Part shown: in pieces, positions 3,387 through 60,341 of the stretch
How positions within the stretch are numbered: position 1 is the stretch's first letter
Layout of the letters: every line of letters starts with the position of its first letter
Virus record (IMG/VR): IMGVR_UViG_3300029256_000003
DNA from: a virus
DNA length: 60,341 bases
Direction: 5' to 3' (one strand)
Notes under the pieces: generated by a model
Database searches by the model: none
What the model was told of the DNA's origin: nothing
The model's input: the letters and a program-made list of their open reading frames with translations, nothing else
Program-made: the position numbers and the translations under genes

Positions 3387-3818
3387 ATGGACAAATTTTT
3401 AGGTCAAGAAATCCCCGAAAAGGATAGATGGCAGTTCTTACAGGACAATGCCGATGCAGTGGAAGAGATTGGCTATACTCATCGCTTTACACCGGATGAG
3501 TTGGCTCAAAAGAAAGAATCTCTTGCTGAAACCTCAATTCAAATTAATGATATTGAGATAGAGAAAAAAGAAGCAATGGAAGCATTTAAGGCAGAGCTAA
3601 AGCCTTTGAATGAAAGGAAACAGGAACTTCTTGAAAATATAAAGAAAGGCTCTGAATATGTTGAAAATGAAGAGTGTGTGAAAATTCTCTATCATGAAGA
3701 AAAGATGGCTGGGTATTACAACAAACTTGGTGAGCTGGTTTATTCCCGTCCTATAATGCCGCAGGAAATGCAAAGAACTATTTTTAATATTAATCGTAAA
3801 ACAGGAACAGAATCATGA
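3387..3818 (+). CDS. Hypothetical protein (coiled-coil rich)
   Basis: 143 aa ORF in a co-directional gene train. No domain recognised. Confidence 0.6.
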   Translation: MDKFLGQEIPEKDRWQFLQDNADAVEEIGYTHRFTPDELAQKKESLAETSIQINDIEIEKKEAMEAFKAELKPLNERKQELLENIKKGSEYVENEECVKILYHEEKMAGYYNKLGELVYSRPIMPQEMQRTIFNINRKTGTES

Positions 3819-4552
3819 GCGAGAACAAATTAAACGTAATTGTACCGAAAGATTATAACGGTGCACCAATTGAAGTAGTATTGAGAGAGGGAGAAGCCCC
3901 CGTAGCACTTGACCCGAAAGAGCCGGAAAGAGTAGTTATCAATGGAACGATAGATGCACCTTTCAGATGGTTGGAAAAGCGTGTCGAACTGATTAATCAA
4001 AAATCGACCAATCTCATTGTGAACCGTGATAAGATGGGGTTAGCATTAACTATTGATGAAACCAACTACTATCAGACTGAAATCAACGGTATTTTACAGG
4101 CTTCCAAGGAAATGATGGAGTTTGGCATTAACACGGATAAGAAATGGGAACCTATTAAGCTGTCTAAGTTCATCAAAATGCACCGTGCTTTCTTTACCGA
4201 TAAATCGCAAAATATGATGCTTGTTTCTACTTTAAAGAACTTCAAGGCAAAAGTAAACCAAGACATCGAACGCAGTAAGGAGGAAAATGGCAGCAAAGTT
4301 GACAACTACTCGCAGGTGGTTGATTCTAATTTGCCGAAATCGTTCAAACTGAATATCCCTCTTTTCAAAGGCTTTGACAATGAAGAGATAGAAGTCGAGA
4401 TTTACGCTGATGTAGACGGTCGAGATGTTTCTCTTTCTCTTGTGTCGGCTGGCGCAAATGAAGCCATTGAGGAATACAAGAATAAAGTCATTGATGTACA
4501 GTTGGATGCCATCAGACAGATTGCACCGGACATCGTAATCATCGAAGTATAA
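3815..4552 (+). CDS. Hypothetical protein
   Basis: 245 aa. The start overlaps the upstream stop (ATGA coupling). No domain recognised. Confidence 0.65.
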   Translation: MSENKLNVIVPKDYNGAPIEVVLREGEAPVALDPKEPERVVINGTIDAPFRWLEKRVELINQKSTNLIVNRDKMGLALTIDETNYYQTEINGILQASKEMMEFGINTDKKWEPIKLSKFIKMHRAFFTDKSQNMMLVSTLKNFKAKVNQDIERSKEENGSKVDNYSQVVDSNLPKSFKLNIPLFKGFDNEEIEVEIYADVDGRDVSLSLVSAGANEAIEEYKNKVIDVQLDAIRQIAPDIVIIEV

Positions 4553-4561
4553 CTTTGTTAA

Positions 4562-4593
4562 CCTGCCTGTCCGGTCTGTGAAGATGGGGCGGG
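4562..4593 (+). promoter_or_regulatory. Conserved-loop hairpin, copy a (stem CCTGCC/GGCGGG, loop contains GGTCTGTGAAGATGG)
   Basis: Stem 4562-4567 pairs with 4588-4593. The loop core 4573-4587 recurs at 58276-58290 and, reverse-complemented, at 47658-47672, each time within a different complementary stem. Confidence 0.55.
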
Positions 4594-4600
4594 CGAAAAT

Positions 4601-4810
4601 GGTGGTATGGCGGAACAACGAGAGACGCTAAAGTGAAGCTCTTATAGATAGGTTGGTAAGTCAATGTGTTACGGTTAGCCGTAAAAAGAAATTCAAACCA
4701 CTGAGTTAATAACGGGTAATGCCGAATAGACCGCAATGTCAATGAATAAACTACTTGGTGAAAGTCCAAGAAAAACTCCTATCATGCAGGTGCAAGTCCT
4801 GCTACCACCT
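4601..4810 (+). ncRNA. Giant tRNA-like element (about 210 nt)
   Basis: - Acceptor: GGTGGTA (4601-4607) pairs perfectly with TACCACC (4803-4809).
- D-arm: Leu-type TGGCGGAACAACGAGAGACGC.
- T-arm: perfect GCAGG-TGCAAGT-CCTGC (4786-4802), immediately 5' of the acceptor strand.
- About 155 nt intervene, including a second T-arm-like hairpin CTTGG-TGAAAGT-CCAAG (4756-4770).
- No canonical anticodon arm found. Confidence 0.4.
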
Positions 4811-4860
4811 CATAAATGTGAGCCACACATAAATGGCAAGGGTTAGTAAATAATGGTTGT

Positions 4861-4888
4861 GCCCCGGAGAATACGCTTCGGGGCTTTT
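4861..4888 (+). terminator. Rho-independent terminator
   Basis: GCCCCGGAG-aatacg-CTTCGGGGC followed by TTTT, at the end of a 348-nt ORF-free region. Confidence 0.7.
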
Positions 4889-4900
4889 AATTAGGTAAAT

Positions 4901-13549: not shown

Positions 13550-13840
13550 ATGGAAGATAAATTTATAACGATAGACACTTTGAATATGTTATTGCAAAAA
13601 GGCTTTAACTATTATCATTTCCCAACACAGTCCATCGCCCAAAAGTGGCTACGTGAAACCAAGAACCTACATATTTCCATCATTAGAAACGATTGCGGTT
13701 ATGGCTATGATATATGCAAAGCTGATAATGGAACTCATATAACCGATGGAATATTTAAAGGTCCTAACGATGGTGGTCAGTGGGACACCTATGAAGAAGC
13801 ATTGGAAGTTGGAATACAAGAAGCATTAAAACTTATATAA
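13550..13840 (+). CDS. Hypothetical protein
   Basis: The ORF track gives 13532..13840 from a TTG. ATG at 13550 is preferred. Confidence 0.55.
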   Translation: MEDKFITIDTLNMLLQKGFNYYHFPTQSIAQKWLRETKNLHISIIRNDCGYGYDICKADNGTHITDGIFKGPNDGGQWDTYEEALEVGIQEALKLI

Positions 13841-19936: not shown

Positions 19937-19980
19937 TATATTTGCGGTGAGGATAACAATCCCTTCGTGTGAAGATGCAC
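19937..19980 (+). promoter_or_regulatory. Late promoter (TAtaTTTG) plus leader box GTGTGAAGATGCAC, upstream of the portal operon
   Basis: -7 box at 19937-19944. Leader box at 19967-19980, within hairpin CGTGT-GAAGAT-GCACG. Confidence 0.55.
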
Positions 19981-29273: not shown

Positions 29274-30128
29274 TTATGCTGCTGTATTCAGCTCACCTTT
29301 TATCTGCTTGATGGCTTTCTTTACATTCCATCCATTCTCATACAAAGCTATAATAAACCTTCTTCCTTTCTCCGTCCAAACGGTGTACGAGTTTGTCCCT
29401 GTGGAACCGTCCGAACGGGTGAAGGTATTGGTGCGGGTGTCGTGTAGCTTCCATGCAGAATAAGGGGAGTACAGAAGCCATTGCCCAGATTGATAAAATA
29501 TTATTCCGGCTTCATTCAGTTTCTTGTGTAGTTTCTCCGCAACCATTCCGATTTGTTTAGCTACCTGTGTGGAAGTAAGCGTGTTGACCGATTGCAGGTG
29601 GGTGTCGTAGTAGTTGACTTTCGGGGCTGCCTGCTTGATTTCCTTTTCTTGCAACTCGATAGTGGCTTGCTGTTGTTCCGTTTCGGCTTCGAGTTGCTTT
29701 AGCCGTTCTTCACGCTTTGCAAGGGTGGCTTGTGCGATGGTGAGAGCACGTGCCATGATTTCTTCGGGAGTATCGTCCTGTTTGGTGGAGATGTATCCGC
29801 CGGTGGTTCTGACTTCGTGAAGAATTTGTTTTACTCCCTTCTTGAATTGCTTGGCAATTGGTTTACGGGATTGCATGAGGACTTCATATAATCCGTCCTC
29901 GGTAAGCATCCAAACTTCCTGATTTCCACCGGGGGTCGTAACAATATTACGAACCTTTTCATCATCATCTACGAGATTAGTTAACTTGCTTGAATTGCTT
30001 TCGGAGTATTCTAATACTTCTCCTACTTCTTTGGCTAAGAACAATGGATTTTCTGCCGTTCCATAAACGGTGAATTGGTGTCCAAGCAATTCGGTTTGTT
30101 TTAGGACTTGAATAGGATTTGTTGACAT
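29274..30128 (-). CDS. Antirepressor-like protein (BRO-N + KilA-C type)
   Basis: The N-terminus QVLKQTELLGHQFTVYGTAENPLFLAKEVGEVLEY is BRO-N-like. The C-terminal half is KilAC-like. Confidence 0.75.
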   Translation of the reverse strand: MSTNPIQVLKQTELLGHQFTVYGTAENPLFLAKEVGEVLEYSESNSSKLTNLVDDDEKVRNIVTTPGGNQEVWMLTEDGLYEVLMQSRKPIAKQFKKGVKQILHEVRTTGGYISTKQDDTPEEIMARALTIAQATLAKREERLKQLEAETEQQQATIELQEKEIKQAAPKVNYYDTHLQSVNTLTSTQVAKQIGMVAEKLHKKLNEAGIIFYQSGQWLLYSPYSAWKLHDTRTNTFTRSDGSTGTNSYTVWTEKGRRFIIALYENGWNVKKAIKQIKGELNTAA

Positions 30129-30133
30129 AACAA

Positions 30134-30326
30134 ATAAAAAAGCGCCTACTACGAGCTGTCAACAAATCCATAAGATTAATGTCGGAGGCGTTTCCGTATC
30201 TCCACTCGGTAGGCGCAATATCTTTAAAACGATACTACTATAATATGTCTTGGCAAAAAAATAACTCTATATGGTAGAGCCATAAGAGTTTGCCGCTCTT
30301 ATGAATTTGTTGACACCGCAAACATA
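30134..30326 (-). promoter_or_regulatory. Minus-strand promoter TAtgTTTG and structured leader with terminator-like hairpin upstream of antirepressor 3
   Basis: CAAACATA on the plus strand at 30319-30326. An 8-bp stem 30142-30149/30209-30216 is followed (minus strand) by T6, immediately before the ATG at 30128. Confidence 0.5.
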
Positions 30327-46596: not shown

Positions 46597-47262
46597 ATGA
46601 AATACGCAGTAGTAACAATCGAATGGCTAGCCCAGCACGGTCTGTTGGCTATCCCCACAATGAGAAAGAGTAAAGACGGAAGTAAGGTAATCCTCCACGA
46701 AGAGTATTTGTCCCCTTACAAGGACGAAGAGTTTCCGAGATACTATTTTGACAGCCCGGAACTGAACGCCCTTCTGTCAAGTGATGAATGGTCATGGACG
46801 GAAGAAGAACATCCGGCAGGCAGTGCGGAATTTATCCAGGTGGCGGCAGCGCAGAACCTTTTGAATGTGACCAAAGCCGGAATTCAAACTATGTCCCTGA
46901 CAGACAACGAAGCGTTGAAAGTGAAGTCCATGTATCCGTATTGGAACGAGTTTATCAGCAAATCACTAACAACCGGAATGAAAGTGCAGTACAACGATAA
47001 ACTCTACCGGGTAAGGCAGAATATTGCTACCGTCTTGGAGAATCAACCGCCAAGCATCAACACCGCAGCTCTCTATGAGGAAATCAACGAGACCGTTGCC
47101 GGAACAAAGGATGATCCGATTCCATACAATAACAATATGGCATTGGAAGAGGGCAAATACTATTCGCAGGACGGAGTTACCTATAAGTGCACCCGTTCGA
47201 CCGGGCAAGCGGTGTACGCTAACCTCTCTGATTTGATTGGTATTTACGTTGAGGTAGCATGA
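46597..47262 (+). CDS. Hypothetical protein, possibly carbohydrate-binding (tentative)
   Basis: 221 aa. The KVQYNDKLYRVRQ and GVTYKCTRSTG segments resemble small sugar-binding repeats. Confidence 0.5.
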   Translation: MKYAVVTIEWLAQHGLLAIPTMRKSKDGSKVILHEEYLSPYKDEEFPRYYFDSPELNALLSSDEWSWTEEEHPAGSAEFIQVAAAQNLLNVTKAGIQTMSLTDNEALKVKSMYPYWNEFISKSLTTGMKVQYNDKLYRVRQNIATVLENQPPSINTAALYEEINETVAGTKDDPIPYNNNMALEEGKYYSQDGVTYKCTRSTGQAVYANLSDLIGIYVEVA

Positions 47263-47651
47263 AACGTCTGTTATACATCCTGACCATTTTCCTGATGTCA
47301 GAAATATGCTTCACAAGCTGCCGGAACATCAAGTCTGTTCCGGTAGAGACCGTGAAGACGGAGTACAAGACACGTGATAGCATCCGTTTTGACAGCATCT
47401 ATGAGCATGACAGTATATTCCTGTTCGTAAAGGGAGATACTGTCTACAAAGAGAAATATCGGTATAAATACCGGTATCTGACAATTAACAAGACAGATAC
47501 GGTTATGCTGACCGATTCTGTGCAGATCCCTTATCCGGTGGAGAAACAGCTAACCCGGTGGCAACAGATGAAAATAGAGCTGGGCGGTTGGGCTGTTGGC
47601 GTAATTATAATACTATCTATTGTATTAATGCTTAAGATGTTTAGAAATTAA
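47259..47651 (+). CDS. Lipoprotein with C-terminal TM anchor (unimolecular spanin candidate)
   Basis: N-terminal lipobox MKRLLYILTIFLMSEICFTSC. C-terminal TM helix LGGWAVGVIIILSIVLMLKMF. Confidence 0.55.
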   Translation: MKRLLYILTIFLMSEICFTSCRNIKSVPVETVKTEYKTRDSIRFDSIYEHDSIFLFVKGDTVYKEKYRYKYRYLTINKTDTVMLTDSVQIPYPVEKQLTRWQQMKIELGGWAVGVIIILSIVLMLKMFRN

Positions 47652-47681
47652 CCGGCACTATCTTCACAGACCGTTTCCGGT
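47651..47681 (-). promoter_or_regulatory. Conserved-loop hairpin, copy c (stem ACCGG/CCGGT)
   Basis: The minus strand reads ACCGGaaaCGGTCTGTGAAGATAGTGCCGGT. It shares a 20-nt identity (ACGGTCTGTGAAGATAGTGC) with 58274-58293. Confidence 0.55.
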
Positions 47682-47858
47682 ATGAAAAGTTTAAGTTTTA
47701 CTCACATAAAAATTTCCAATGGAAAAAGGTTCATAAAGAAAGGAGGATAAAATGATACATTAATTAATACTAAGCAATAAGTTTATCCGGTAAAGTAGAA
47801 GGCCGGATATCGTAGCAAATGTAGCTCTTTTTTTGGGGGGGTAGAGTAAAAAGAACCC

Positions 47859-48022: not shown

Positions 48023-48319
48023 ATGTGTAAGTCCGAGATTTTTGCCGAAATATTGAACCTTGTAGGAAAAGAAACTGAAGTTTCTACAGAACTAATCCTT
48101 TCATCAACCAAAGTGACCGAAGTCGTCGATGTCCGTTCTATCGTAGTGTTCTTCCTCACTGAATACGGTCTATATCCTGAACAGATAGCCGCTTTACTTC
48201 ATAAGACATCTGCCAGTATACGCTATCTTATATCCACTTTCGAAAGCCGTAAAAATACAAACAAAATGATTGCAATATATCTGCAAAATATTCGTAAATC
48301 GCTTGCAAATGAGTGCTGA
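48023..48319 (+). CDS. DnaA-domain-IV-like HTH protein (putative transcription regulator)
   Basis: 98 aa. SSTKVTEVVDVRSIVVFFLTEYGLYPEQIAALLHKTSASIRYLI parallels the DnaA C-terminal DNA-binding domain pattern. Confidence 0.45.
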   Translation: MCKSEIFAEILNLVGKETEVSTELILSSTKVTEVVDVRSIVVFFLTEYGLYPEQIAALLHKTSASIRYLISTFESRKNTNKMIAIYLQNIRKSLANEC

Positions 48320-53494: not shown

Positions 53495-53529
53495 TACTTT
53501 TGCTTAAAATTGTTGCTCTATTGTTGCTC
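53495..53529 (+). promoter_or_regulatory. int promoter TActTTTG and second arm-type repeat
   Basis: -7 box at 53495-53502. GTTGCTCTATTGTTGCTC at 53512-53529. Confidence 0.5.
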
Positions 53530-53563
53530 GAAAAAGAAACACCTAAAGAATACACATAAAATT

Positions 53564-54898
53564 ATGGCCACATTTAAAGCAGAAGTGCAGAAGCACCAAA
53601 AAAGAAAAGATAAGACCTGGAATGTAAAAATCCGGGTAACTCATAATAGAGTTGTCCGAAGGTTACCAACCTCTATATATGTAAGCCAAGAGGATTTGAC
53701 GGTCAAGAATTTCAAAATTAAGAATCAGGAAAAGGTAGATCAATGCAATGAGATAATCAATTACTATCGTAATAAATGCAGTAAGATTGCTCTTTCTATA
53801 GATAGTATGTCGATAGACGAATTGGTCGATTATCTAAACCAAAAGGAAGAGAATGAAAAAAAAGATATTGATTTTGTATCTTTTGCAAAAGACTATATTA
53901 ATGATCTTGAAAAACAAGGTAAAAAGGGAACCGCTTCCAATTATAAAGGTATGCTCCAGTCTTTGATAGAGTTTATGAAAAGAGAGATTATATCTATTTC
54001 CGAAATAACCTATTCAATGCTGGTTAATTATTCGAAGTTTTTGATAGAAAAAAAAGAGAAGGCTAATTTAGAAGCTATAAAAAAGGGGAGGCGTATCACA
54101 ACCAATAGAATGCTATCTAACTATACCGCATGTATTCGGCATTTGCACAAGGAGGCTAAATTAAAATATAACGATGAAGAGAAAGGAATAATATTAATAC
54201 CTTGGTCGCCATTCATGAAATTCAAGGTTCCTAAAGAAGAGACTACTAGAAAAAGAGCGCTATCAGCACAGACGATAAAAGTAATTAATGATTTACCCTA
54301 TATAATGCGGCATAACGCCCGGAAAAATGTAGAGCAAAATTGCAGGTATAATCTCGCAAAAGATGTATTTATCTTGTCTTTCTGCCTGATAGGTATGAAT
54401 TCTGCCGACTTGTATAGCTGTGATAATATAAGCGATAATACGATTCAATATTTCAGAGAAAAAACAAGAACCAGACGTAGGGATAACGCAGAAATTCATG
54501 TAGATGTAAACCCATTTATTGCCGATCTGCTAGAGAAATACAAAGATCATACAGGGAAAAGAGTGTTCAGATTCTATCAAATGTATGCTGACTATAAGAA
54601 CTTTAATAAAGCTATCAATAAGGGCCTTAAGGAGATTGAGAAGAGCATTAACGATATAAATAAGTCCAATAAGAACGGTGAAATCATAGAAGATTTGGAA
54701 TTTTATGCTGCACGTCATTCATGGGCTACTATTGCGGCTAATGATCTTAAAATAGACAAGTATGTAGTCCATTCCGCCTTAAACCACGTTGACGAATCTA
54801 TGAGAGTGACCGAAATTTATATCAAGAAGGATTTTAGTGCTATAAATGAGGCTAATTCTAAAGTTATCGATTATGTGTTTAATAATAACGTGTATTAA
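53564..54898 (+). CDS. int: Tyrosine site-specific integrase
   Basis: Bacteroidota-type N-terminal arm-binding region (MATFKAEVQKHQKRKDKTWNVKIRV). C-terminal catalytic residues: ...YAARHSWAT...LNHV...VTEIYI. ATG at 53564 is preferred over TTG at 53510. Confidence 0.85.
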   Translation: MATFKAEVQKHQKRKDKTWNVKIRVTHNRVVRRLPTSIYVSQEDLTVKNFKIKNQEKVDQCNEIINYYRNKCSKIALSIDSMSIDELVDYLNQKEENEKKDIDFVSFAKDYINDLEKQGKKGTASNYKGMLQSLIEFMKREIISISEITYSMLVNYSKFLIEKKEKANLEAIKKGRRITTNRMLSNYTACIRHLHKEAKLKYNDEEKGIILIPWSPFMKFKVPKEETTRKRALSAQTIKVINDLPYIMRHNARKNVEQNCRYNLAKDVFILSFCLIGMNSADLYSCDNISDNTIQYFREKTRTRRRDNAEIHVDVNPFIADLLEKYKDHTGKRVFRFYQMYADYKNFNKAINKGLKEIEKSINDINKSNKNGEIIEDLEFYAARHSWATIAANDLKIDKYVVHSALNHVDESMRVTEIYIKKDFSAINEANSKVIDYVFNNNVY

Positions 54899-55371: not shown

Positions 55372-56142
55372 TTATAGCAGGGCATCGCTAACAATATGCT
55401 GTTTAACTATCCATAAACTTCTCACCTGTTCTATCTCTATATCAAAATCGTCAAATTCCTCGCTATTGATAGAATGGGCGATCCAATATCTGCAAGACAA
55501 TGATTGCTCTTTGTGTCTACGCAATACTTTGATATGGCCATGATATTCTCCCGTGTCTTTGTCCTCTATTACTATTCCAAATATATTTCCAAACGGAATC
55601 ATATTTGGGTTTTCTCTTGGGAGTGTGTATTTTTTTAAAGCGACCCAGCATCCAGAAGGAAGAGTAGGAGACATAGAACGTCCTACCACTTGGGCGATAC
55701 CTTCACAATCTTTACAGTCCGGCAGGTACCAGTATCTTGTAATATCTTCCGTAGTATTGATTAACTGTGTTTGCCCGGCTGCAAACCTGAAACTAACTTG
55801 TGGCAGCAAATGGAACCCTTTCTTCTTTGCATCTCGATATTCTTCTTCTGATGTGATTGATATACCAGAGGATGTAGGTAGGTTTATAGGGGGATCTGAT
55901 AATTCTTTCTTATCTTCTTCTTTGAACATAGAACCGTTGCCGGTGAGAATGTAATTAGCATTAACTTGCGGATATGCCTCGCAAAGCCCAACTATTATAT
56001 CTGAAGATATGCTTTTGGTTACTCCTTTTTTGTAATGAGACACTTTGGCTTGTGCGTTTTTTACGCCTTTTTCTTTTTCAAGCGTATAAGCTGTAATTTG
56101 AAGTTCATTAATCACTTCTAAAAAACGTTCATCTCTTTCCAT
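55372..56142 (-). CDS. CI-like repressor: N-terminal HTH + C-terminal S24 (LexA-like) autopeptidase
   Basis: 256 aa. N-terminal XRE-like HTH, and C-terminal VVGRSMSPTLPSGCWVALKK (S24 Ser motif). Divergent from the operator/promoter region. Confidence 0.85.
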   Translation of the reverse strand: MERDERFLEVINELQITAYTLEKEKGVKNAQAKVSHYKKGVTKSISSDIIVGLCEAYPQVNANYILTGNGSMFKEEDKKELSDPPINLPTSSGISITSEEEYRDAKKKGFHLLPQVSFRFAAGQTQLINTTEDITRYWYLPDCKDCEGIAQVVGRSMSPTLPSGCWVALKKYTLPRENPNMIPFGNIFGIVIEDKDTGEYHGHIKVLRRHKEQSLSCRYWIAHSINSEEFDDFDIEIEQVRSLWIVKQHIVSDALL

Positions 56143-58179: not shown

Positions 58180-58235
58180 GCCCTACTGACGGATTGAACG
58201 GCATCCGATAGCGAGAATCGGGTAGGGCACTTTTT
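58180..58235 (+). terminator. Terminator-like long hairpin with T-run
   Basis: GCCCTAC (58180-58186) pairs with GTAGGGC (58222-58228), enclosing sub-hairpin CGGAT..ATCCG and followed by T5. Confidence 0.5.
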
Positions 58236-58269
58236 GCAGTGTTTTATTTTTTATTTGTGTGGTTCTATA

Positions 58270-58300
58270 GTGTACGGTCTGTGAAGATAGTGCACTTTTT
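58270..58300 (+). promoter_or_regulatory. Conserved-loop hairpin, copy b (stem GTGTAC/GTGCAC) with T-run
   Basis: The loop holds GGTCTGTGAAGATAG (58276-58290). T5 at 58296-58300. It sits 5 nt upstream of the tRNA-like element. Confidence 0.55.
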
Positions 58301-58305
58301 AATAA

Positions 58306-58409
58306 GGAGAATTGGCGGAATCAGTAGACGCACCACTCGATAATAGGAATGTCAACCTTAGATGTGGCGAGCTTGACAACTCATCTTGGTGCAAATCCAA
58401 GATTCTCCA
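58306..58409 (+). ncRNA. tRNA-like element (104 nt), Leu-type D-arm and long variable arm, non-canonical expanded anticodon region
   Basis: - Acceptor GGAGAAT/ATTCTCC is perfect.
- D-arm is TGGCGGAATCAGTAGACGC.
- T-arm is CTTGG-TGCAAAT-CCAAG.
- 35 nt sit where a 17-nt anticodon arm is expected.
- A CTTAGAT loop (anticodon TAG) is closed by only 4 bp, with a 20-nt insertion on its 5' side. Confidence 0.5.
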
Positions 58410-59674: not shown

Positions 59675-59785
59675 AATTATTAGGAAATCGCAAATAGACA
59701 TTCATTTATTAATTAACCCAATGCCGACACCCCAGGATGTCGTAGGGTGCGAGTCCCTTATTTGAGTTTTACATGTTCTATACTA

Positions 59786-59826
59786 TCCTAGTGTCCGTTG
59801 GTTCGGTATCTAGGAACATTTTTTTT
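59786..59826 (+). terminator. Rho-independent terminator
   Basis: TCCTAG..CCG-ttggtt-CGG..CTAGGA, followed by T8 after 3 nt. Confidence 0.7.
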
Positions 59827-59907
59827 GAATTAAACTTTTCGGAGGCGTCGGTTCGTGAGGATAGGCGCTTTATTTTATTTGATTAACCACTTTAATAATA
59901 TATAATC

Positions 59908-60341
59908 ATGTCAGAAACAATAACAGGATTTAAGGGATTTGATAAAGACCTTAAGTGTAGAGACTACCAATATGAGGTAGGGAAGAAGTTCGAGGAAGAA
60001 GGAAAGATTGAAGCTTGCTCAAAGGGTTTTCATTTTTGTGAAAATCCTTTAGATGTATTAGGGTATTACCCACCATATGGCGAAAAAGGATCGAACAGGT
60101 ATTGTATAGTGAAAGGAAGCGGTAATATTGATAGGGATGGTGATGATACCAAAGTAGCTTGTTCCAAACTATATATTTCAGCAGAAATAGGACTAAAGGG
60201 AATAATAGAAGCAGGAGTAAAATTTATCTTAGACAAAGTAAATTGGAAAGATAATAAGAAATCTAACACCGGATACCAATCAGCAGCGACGAACACCGGA
60301 AACCGATCAGCAGCAACGAACACCGGATACCAATCAGCAGC
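59908..60341 (+). CDS. Nonapeptide-repeat protein, N-terminal part (continues at 1..794)
   Basis: ATG at 59908. MSETITGFKGFDKDLKCRDYQYEVGKKFEEEGKIEACSKGFHFCENPLDVLGYYPPYGEKGSNRYCIVKGSGNIDRDGDDTKVACSKLYISAEIGLKG... then runs into TNTGYQSAATNTGNR repeats at the window edge. Confidence 0.8.
   Translation, partial: MSETITGFKGFDKDLKCRDYQYEVGKKFEEEGKIEACSKGFHFCENPLDVLGYYPPYGEKGSNRYCIVKGSGNIDRDGDDTKVACSKLYISAEIGLKGIIEAGVKFILDKVNWKDNKKSNTGYQSAATNTGNRSAATNTGYQSA

Follow-up and report, generated by a model that had tools for sequence, protein, structure and literature searches.

In a stretch of viral DNA of 60,341 nt (IMG/VR record IMGVR_UViG_3300029256_000003; hereafter the window, meaning the whole stretch that was analysed), a small hairpin with a conserved tip and a freely varying lower stem was found in four copies, designated a to d. 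The window derives from a Bacteroides temperate phage that is partly related to phages BS-TP2 and BKO1-TP3. Judged from its sequence, and with confidence that falls somewhat short of even, the hairpin was interpreted as a portable element of the terminator type, which would mark RNA 3' ends and non-coding RNA units and would carry a tip that is read by a Bacteroidales factor. Its structure, the strand on which it forms, the family to which it belongs and the statistics of its genomic context were observed directly and are described here.

The 14-mer CGGTCTGTGAAGAT is present exactly three times in the window, at 4572-4585 (+), 58275-58288 (+) and 47659-47672 (-), corresponding to copies a, b and c. 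An original prediction, made from the window sequence alone, had reported that copies b and c share 20 nt and that copy a shares 14 nt, and exact matching returned the same figures, the common 20-mer of copies b and c being ACGGTCTGTGAAGATAGTGC. The same prediction described a conserved loop in three hairpins with compensatory stems. Three hairpins with different stems are present, and the different sequences still pair in each copy, but the shared 14–20 nt do not form a single-stranded loop and instead fold on themselves. Four copies were matched in the window by a covariance model built from 47 hairpins; the fourth (copy d) is new, and was recovered with filters off although it lay outside the seed set of the model. 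A related box that had been proposed at 19967-19980 was rejected as a family member, as a filter-free model search missed it even at E ≤ 10 and it shares just a 9-mer with the motif, which is within chance. Alignment of 300 nt around the copies showed no homology beyond the motif, except for TGGCGGAA in copies a and b, which is part of the tRNA-like elements described below.

Read from bottom to top, the tip is composed of a C-G pair, a 1x1 mismatch, then G.U, U-A, C-G and U-A pairs closed by a GUGA tetraloop of the GNRA type, with a conserved core of GUCU-GUGA-AGAU-A. The mismatch below the apical helix is G.A in copies b and c and G.G in copy a. The tip stands on a lower stem of ~6–8 bp that may have any sequence and that differs among all four window copies; the 3' A of the tip usually faces an unpaired G, and the whole hairpin including the variable lower stem comprises 11–13 bp. 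Copy a is a 13-bp hairpin that begins 11 nt past the stop codon of a DUF2303-like gene (3815-4552) and has no U-tract, AAAAU being next. Copy b (AGUGUAC-G-GUCU-GUGA-AGAU-A-GUGCACU) is followed by UUUUAAUAA and has a terminator-like UUUU tail. In copy c (ACCGG-AAA-CGGUCU-GUGA-AGAUAG-UG-CCGGU) an internal loop separates the lower stem from the tip, and the tail UUAAUUUCU is a weak U-tract; this copy was predicted to sit at a gene 3' end on the opposite strand, and its last base is indeed the A of the TAA stop codon of the + strand open reading frame (ORF) 47259-47651. Copy d (GAGGCGU-C-G-GUUC-GUGA-GGAU-A-G-GCGCUUU) is followed by the U-rich tail AUUUUAUUU, and the ATG of a repeat-protein gene (59908) lies 36 nt downstream; its tip, GGUUC-GUGA-GGAU, differs from the usual one by a change of U-A to C-G and of C-G to U.G.

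On the motif strand the copies fold with energies of -12 to -23 kcal/mol, and thus have the stable hairpin, short loop and transcribed-strand location of a terminator-type element. The motif strand folds far better than the opposite strand because of the G.U pairs, which are frequent across the stems of the family, and this indicates that the element acts in the form of RNA, or failing that as a particular single strand. When 83 different stems were aligned, standard pairs occupied 95.6% of cells, against 36–45% in controls in which one side was slid by 1–3 columns, and changes on both sides were seen at nine of the 11 pairs, two of these in the tip. Within the apical helix of relatives, U-A was replaced by C-G five times and C-G by A-U three times. 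Diverged variants among the fetched loci had C-G replaced by A-U or G.U and the loop GCGA for GUGA, and in another variant the mismatched G was changed to U, pairing with A14. The loci were gathered with exact 14- and 16-mers, and the conservation of the outer tip (C0, G1 and G15) is overstated to that extent.

The original prediction had proposed that the motif be sought in relatives, and it is present in many related phages. An exact 14-mer scan of IMG/VR returned at least 108 loci, and ~90 of the loci listed are hairpins whose flanks are paired yet different in sequence. The hairpin was found in Bacteroides temperate phages, in crAssphage and at some Bacteroidales host loci. One locus (L030) is prototypical crAssphage (Carjivirus communis) at 95–96% identity. 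A full, filter-free search of the 97-kb crAssphage genome (L228, BK010471) yielded exactly three copies, all in the 380-nt gp08/gp09 intergenic region and within 4283-4601, an unannotated non-coding locus. The order there is hairpin, 76 nt, hairpin, 125 nt, hairpin; each of the three tandem copies has TTTG 0–10 nt upstream, and the region 4283-4601 folds far better than shuffled sequence (z = -6.7). PHROG annotation of the neighbouring crAssphage genes gave no matches. A scan with the exact 16-mer of one genome per bacterial species gave 117 matches, 69 of them with at least five of seven flanking positions paired and 54 with at least six. The 69 pairing matches are almost all from Bacteroidales (Bacteroides, Prevotella, Muribaculaceae, Porphyromonadaceae, Alistipes, Dysgonomonadaceae and Alloprevotella), apart from a few on short or ~98-kb contigs that are binned elsewhere and are phage-like; the non-pairing matches come from other phyla and are consistent with chance. 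Host copies were located at the convergent ends of Na/Ca exchanger and OPT transporter genes, downstream of a Maf gene, between genes for an OmpA-family protein and a flavodiiron-type protein, and upstream of a CitMHS transporter gene in three metagenome-assembled genomes. Most host loci are single copy, with approximately one exact copy per positive genome, as compared to four copies in 60 kb of phage DNA.

For context statistics, matches were grouped by unrelated flanks into 92 families. A U-tract, taken as at least six T in the eight positions right after the stem, was present in 50 of the 92 families (54%) versus 4.7% of random positions, and T made up 50–67% at eight consecutive positions after the stem versus a background of ~30%. 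Among the window copies the U-tract is present in b and d and weak in c, and it is absent from copy a and its family. A strict tRNA-like element, requiring an acceptor stem of 7 bp without mismatch, a T-arm of 5 bp and a loop resembling a T-loop, was found within ~20 nt downstream in 23 of 92 families (25%) versus 23 of 3000 random positions (0.8%). In 15 of 92 families an ORF of 60 aa or more starts (ATG) within 60 nt. The 91 viral copies checked are intergenic, save six that are overlapped by a short (81–101 aa) ORF on the opposite strand; 54 of the 91 are co-directional with both neighbours, and only the copy-c family is antisense to both. Upstream, TTTG is enriched 13–26 nt before the loop with a peak 6–7 nt before the stem, and the full TAnnTTTG is rare.

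From this anatomy and context we infer termination, processing by ribonuclease P (RNase P) and the existence of a recognition factor. A hairpin with a U-tract, as in copies b and d and in more than half of the families, would act as an intrinsic terminator of transcription. With a tRNA or tRNA-like gene starting 3–13 nt further on, as in copies a and b and one quarter of the families, RNase P cleavage at that gene would leave an RNA ending in the hairpin plus a short tail; the leader of the copy-a family, AAnAU, has U at -1 and A at -4, both of which suit RNase P. By either route the hairpin would end up at an RNA 3' end. The tip would be read by a trans-acting factor common to Bacteroidales, probably a host factor, that tunes termination and read-through or the stability of the 3' end. 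The tip remains fixed across more than 80 stems, at host loci as well as in unrelated phages, and is lacking from ordinary terminators of the same genomes; it is therefore most likely read by a factor. The window contains other good terminators that lack the tip, and in crAssphage the tip is found at one locus only, which together suggest a special class of terminator. The broad guess of the original prediction, a recognised stem-loop involved in termination, antitermination or processing, agrees with the U-tract in 54% and the tRNA-like element in 25% of families. Its suggestion of a phage-specific regulator, such as the helix-turn-helix (HTH) protein encoded at 48023, is not supported: the same hairpin occurs in crAssphage and beside ordinary host genes, and its presence in unrelated phages and next to host genes points to host machinery or a host factor.

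A more specific proposal is that the fixed tip serves as the docking site of a dedicated factor, with phages either gating read-through into the tRNA-like cargo or releasing hairpin RNAs that titrate the factor; this is doubtful at present. It is possible that, under such an arrangement, the tRNA-like cargo RNAs are decoys against tRNA-targeting defences. That crAssphage and temperate siphoviruses would both be drawing on a Bacteroidales-wide system of hairpin recognition is held with similarly low confidence.

The tRNA-like elements downstream of copies a and b lie just 3' of the hairpins, as had been predicted, with gaps of 5 and 9 nt. Element a has the T-arm GCAGG-UGCAAGU-CCUGC, a tRNA-Leu-like D-arm (UGGCGGAA...AGACGC) and ~130 nt inserted; element b has the T-arm CUUGG-UGCAAAU-CCAAG and the D-arm UGGCGGAAUCAGUAGACGC. 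Homologues of element b at two other loci (L006 and L087) keep both stems by compensatory change (GGAGAAG/CUUCUCC and CCCAG/CUGGG). Both elements are tRNA-like only in the acceptor and T-arm half, and their T-loops (UGCAAAU and UGCAAGU) are non-canonical. A reading of the elements as real tRNAs was rejected, as the full cloverleaf was not found by either ARAGORN or the Rfam tRNA model: ARAGORN, both at default settings and with introns allowed, called no tRNA in the window and gave noise at lowered thresholds, and the Rfam model gave no match in the window even at E ≤ 10. Across the elements of the window and of the type-A relatives (L001-L105), that is, the relatives of copy a, the acceptor and T-arm are perfect, the loop is often UGCAAAU or UGCAAGU and the middles vary widely, measuring 66–254 nt. 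A promoter between the hairpin and the start of the tRNA-like element was also considered and discarded, as no TTTG-type -7 box fits the 5–9 nt spacer or the U-tract.

In type-A relatives the flanks, namely the hairpin plus GAAnAU spacer on one side and the 3' element on the other, are constant, and the cargo that they enclose is exchanged among at least six types of 73–254 nt, some of which pass the Rfam tRNA model. The constant 3' flank ends in an ordinary terminator, GCCCCGGAGAAUACGCUUCGGGGC-UUUU (4861-4884; terminator scan), and this ~80-nt element (4810-4892) matched no Rfam family, its hit to anti-hemB (E = 2.6) being at the level of chance. Relatives of copy b retain a U/G-rich upstream stretch and the hairpin and carry different cargoes; the DUF2693-FD RNA upstream of copy b was found near the hairpin in nine of 12 related loci tested, and is directly adjacent to it in L051 and L111. 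The swapped tRNA-like cargoes may be decoy or scaffolded small RNAs. Elsewhere, a few nt separate the hairpin from a downstream tRNA called by ARAGORN or Rfam at ten loci (L008, L010, L018, L024, L070, L103, L109, L160, L172 and L205). Of these, L109 is the cultured phage BS-TP2 (PQ571275; host B. salyersiae BG8), in which a hairpin at about 13688-13727 immediately precedes a tRNA at 13732-13814. In L172 the hairpin lies inside a tRNA array, between tRNA-Lys and tRNA-Leu, and L066 has the order hairpin, 108-nt tRNA-like element, 30 nt, hairpin. Upstream of copy d, the region 59700-59830 contains a hairpin (CGACA-CCCCAGGA-UGUCG) and a T-arm-like structure (GUAGGG-UGCGAGU-CCCUUA), and ARAGORN called a weak tRNA-Val there at lowered thresholds only; this region may be another degenerate tRNA-like remnant.

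Table. Positions of the hairpin copies and associated features in the window, with folding energies (kcal/mol) of the hairpins on each strand.
Feature	Position	Strand	Fold, motif strand	Fold, opposite strand	Remarks
Copy a	4564-4595	+	-22.6 (z = -5.0)	-7.5	Covariance-model match, 50.1 bits
Copy b	58269-58296	+	-12.7 (z = -4.7)	-5.1	Covariance-model match, 45.6 bits
Copy c	47651-47681	- only	-12.1	-8.1	Covariance-model match, 37.6 bits
Copy d	59842-59871 (model match span 59837-59876)	+	-14.1	-1.5	Covariance-model match, 19.3 bits, E = 2e-4
tRNA-like element a	4601-4809	+			209 nt, 5 nt after copy a; acceptor GGUGGUA/UACCACC
tRNA-like element b	58306-58408	+			103 nt, 9 nt after copy b; acceptor GGAGAAU/AUUCUCC
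Constant 3' flank of cassette	4810-4892	+			CAUAAAUGUGAGCCACACAUAAAUGGCAAGGGUUAGUAAAUAAUGGUUGUG; kept in type-A loci whatever the cargo
DUF2693-FD RNA (Rfam RF02926)	58180-58228	+			77.8 bits vs gathering score of 44.5; 40 nt upstream of copy b
Conserved block 5' of copy c	47684-47823	-			Alignment of 10 distinct relatives

In the 10 relatives aligned, copy c stays linked to ~170 nt of conserved 5' sequence and the 3' side, at the end of the lysis gene, varies. The conserved block lies between the lysis genes and the HTH gene at 48023. It contains, in order, the box TACATTTG (47823-47816), which is a perfect TAnnTTTG; a hairpin UAUCCGG...CCGGAUA (47809-47784), followed by a CCUCCUUUC stretch; an operator-like palindrome with a variable centre, TTTCCnnnGGAAA (47725-47713); and TTG-N16-TTAAACTTTTC (47694-47684), which ends two bases before the copy c hairpin. 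The box TTAAACTTTTC is also found directly before copy d (59830-59840). The Bacteroides promoter consensus comprises a -33 TTTG and a -7 TAnnTTTG, and on the strength of this consensus the block is a candidate promoter region: a regulated antisense promoter may point from it towards the lysis cassette. Alternatively, it could encode a short leftward transcription unit or a small RNA.

The window encodes an integrase (53510-54898) and a CI-like repressor (55372-56142, - strand). An early rightward operon, which includes copies b, d and a, runs past the end of the window into the Sak4, SSB, NinB, RusA, helicase and loader genes, after which the late genes extend to 47651; copy c is in antisense orientation where the lysis genes end. 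The window ends overlap inside a tandem-repeat gene and the last 50 nt recur near the start, indicating that the sequence is a circular permutation. This gene (59908-60341) continues from 1 to ~793 and has ~30 tandem 21-nt repeats (…TNTGYQSAA…), the exact number at the junction being uncertain. Separately, a c4-2 RNA (Rfam RF02944, 47.2 bits) was located at 30140-30216 (-), directly upstream of an Ant anti-repressor gene (29274-30128, -), an arrangement that resembles the c4-ant immunity system of P1 and P7.

Several observations weigh against a portable terminator-type hairpin with a recognised tip. Conservation of the tip is partly inflated because exact 14- and 16-mers were used to collect the loci. 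The U-tract is missing from copy a and its large family and weak in copy c. A TTTG box, similar to the Bacteroides -7 element, lies 6–10 nt upstream of the stem in about one third of families, and such upstream TTTG and TTAAACTTTTC boxes would place the hairpin at a transcript 5' end rather than a 3' end. Several host copies follow divergent genes or lie 20–60 nt before an ATG, which misfits a pure end-of-gene terminator. A shared binding protein was sought by tblastn of all window ORFs against all loci, which returned only the neighbours of copy a (NinB, helicase, Sak4 and SSB). A hairpin near the 5' end would suit a nut/boxB-like element or an attenuator, in which a phage or host protein bound to the tip just after the promoter decides between stopping and reading through into the tRNA-like gene or ORF. 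The GNRA loop closed by U-A resembles lambda boxB, TTTG is enriched upstream of the loop, and linear boxes are present before the hairpin: TAACTTTG (4550-4557) precedes copy a, overlapping the stop codon of the DUF2303-like gene, and TTAAACTTTTC precedes copies c and d, the order before copy c being palindrome, TTG, 16 nt, box and hairpin. Copies b, d and a all belong to the early rightward operon, which lies beyond the CI-like repressor gene, several families have a hairpin plus U-tract 24–40 nt before an ATG, and the hairpin forms the constant 5' flank of the swapped tRNA-like cargo. We nevertheless consider this explanation unlikely. Neither Pfam nor PHROG domains were detected in the early small ORFs, and no N-like or known RNA-binding domain was found among them, although such proteins are hard to detect; the loci share no protein beyond the type-A neighbours; the full TAnnTTTG consensus is rare upstream; and the hairpin also occurs beside host housekeeping genes, at convergent gene ends and in crAssphage, which has no regulators in common with the window phage.

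A role in processing or stabilising arrays of small RNAs, with a host ribonuclease cutting at the hairpin or the hairpin blocking exonucleases to release or protect tRNA-like and short RNAs, was given similarly little credence. Hairpins do bracket short non-coding segments in crAssphage, L066 and L172, and the window has the order DUF2693-FD RNA, hairpin, tRNA-like element, but a stem of 11–13 bp is short for RNase III, blocking an exonuclease requires no fixed tip, and the strong U-tract signal is more simply explained by termination. It is quite improbable that the hairpin is itself the product, as a 35–50 nt RNA made from an upstream promoter, ended by the U-tract or by RNase P and acting as a decoy or sponge for a host protein. 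This idea is entirely inferential; many copies are inside operons and far from promoter-like boxes, and those host copies that sit where genes converge resemble ordinary terminators, so that what commends it is the TTTG box just upstream in about one third of families, the same box 0–10 nt before each of the three tandem crAssphage copies, and a motif density far greater in phages (four per 60 kb) than in hosts. Less credible again is a signal at the DNA level, in which the fixed 13–16 bp (GGTCTGTGAAGATAG) would be a protein-binding site within a terminator palindrome or promoter-coupled terminator, or the hairpin would form in single-stranded DNA during replication or recombination. G.T pairs are tolerated in DNA hairpins too, and the recombination genes NinB, RusA and HNH lie near copy a. 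There is also precedent in terminator palindromes that double as transcription factor sites and in terminators that overlap promoters (bioRxiv 10.64898/2026.08.19.745784). A double-stranded site, however, gives no reason for complementary flanks in 83 versions, the orientation of the hairpin tracks transcription, the U-tract and the tRNA spacing are features of RNA, and the gap from the hairpin to the tRNA-like start accommodates no Bacteroides -7 box. Similarity by chance, or descent from a duplicated segment, has nothing but the small size of the motif in its favour and can be set aside almost completely. As the original prediction had argued, the length of the match is beyond chance, with three exact 14-mers in 60 kb and more than 80 independent stems elsewhere; the extended flanking homology that it had named as the mark of a duplicated segment was looked for by alignment and none was seen, which indicates that the copies are not remnants of one.

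If the interpretation as a portable terminator-type hairpin holds, a class of terminator or processing hairpins distinguished by sequence is at work in Bacteroidales and their phages, and an RNA-recognition factor not yet known would be implied in a main phylum of the human gut, in a group not known to have Hfq or ProQ. Little is known of the transcription signals of prototypical crAssphage, in which the motif picks out a single non-coding locus, and the motif also flags cassettes that swap tRNA-like RNAs between constant flanks, which are candidates for counter-defence or other small RNAs. The covariance model provides a simple finder of non-coding RNA loci in Bacteroides phage genomes, and for the engineering of Bacteroides the hairpin is a possible portable terminator or insulator.

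The hairpin was compared to known systems. In Rfam 15 no match overlaps any copy, at the gathering score or at E ≤ 10; no paper containing the hairpin sequence was found in the literature searched, nor did searches on DUF2693-FD, Bacteroides terminators and crAssphage hairpins turn up anything specific to it. A K-turn or C/D box reading of the tip, suggested by a weak snoRNA match (E = 0.77), was rejected for want of tandem G.A pairs. Like T7 RNase III hairpins and the 3' stabilisers of the repetitive extragenic palindromic (REP) type, the copies are repeated intercistronic hairpins of a kind that define or protect RNA ends, and T7 sites share some sequence. An RNase III site, however, needs ~20 bp or more of double-stranded RNA, in contrast to 11–13 bp here including the tip, and a single 1x1 mismatch takes the place of the large internal loop of the T7 hairpins. 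Copies of REP elements share their whole sequence including the stems, whereas the lower stems here differ, both in the four window copies and in the 83 relatives; a palindrome like REP or miniature inverted-repeat transposable elements, or a mimic of a clustered regularly interspaced short palindromic repeat (CRISPR), was excluded on the same ground. In DNA uptake sequences the inverted pairs make up the stem, and each genome carries a great many of them, whereas the present motif forms the tip, in one orientation, at approximately one exact copy per host genome, and the uptake-sequence idea was ruled out by copy number. The uptake-sequence terminators of Neisseria and Haemophilus do offer a case of a fixed short sequence embedded in terminator hairpins (PMC1852404). 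In MALAT1-mascRNA, as is suggested here, the 3' end of the upstream RNA would arise by RNase P cleavage at a tRNA-like structure directly downstream; that system is eukaryotic, and the parallel draws on the 3–13 nt spacing and the leader U at -1.

The nut/boxB sites of lambda N antitermination and the put sites of HK022 are likewise small phage RNA hairpins, with a GNRA-type loop closed by U-A, repeated in early operons and, in some copies, preceded by a short conserved linear box. They differ in that no N-like protein was found here among the early small ORFs, in that the hairpin is also present in hosts and unrelated phages and carries a U-tract, and in that boxB stems are conserved within a phage whereas the present stems differ between copies. 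The hairpin thus fails a defining feature of each of its closest known kinds, save the general shape of a terminator, and it is a sequence-marked hairpin of the terminator type not previously described in Rfam or the literature searched. Intrinsic (Rho-independent) terminators have no common sequence, whereas here 13–16 nt of the tip are fixed across stems, phages and hosts; the type-A (copy a) subfamily also lacks the U-tract, and a quarter of the families abut a tRNA or tRNA-like gene. Bacteroidota terminators are reported to deviate little from the classical form (PMC13613805). What the hairpin has in common with intrinsic terminators is its 11–13 bp with a tetraloop, its U-tract in 54% of families, and its intergenic and co-directional placement.

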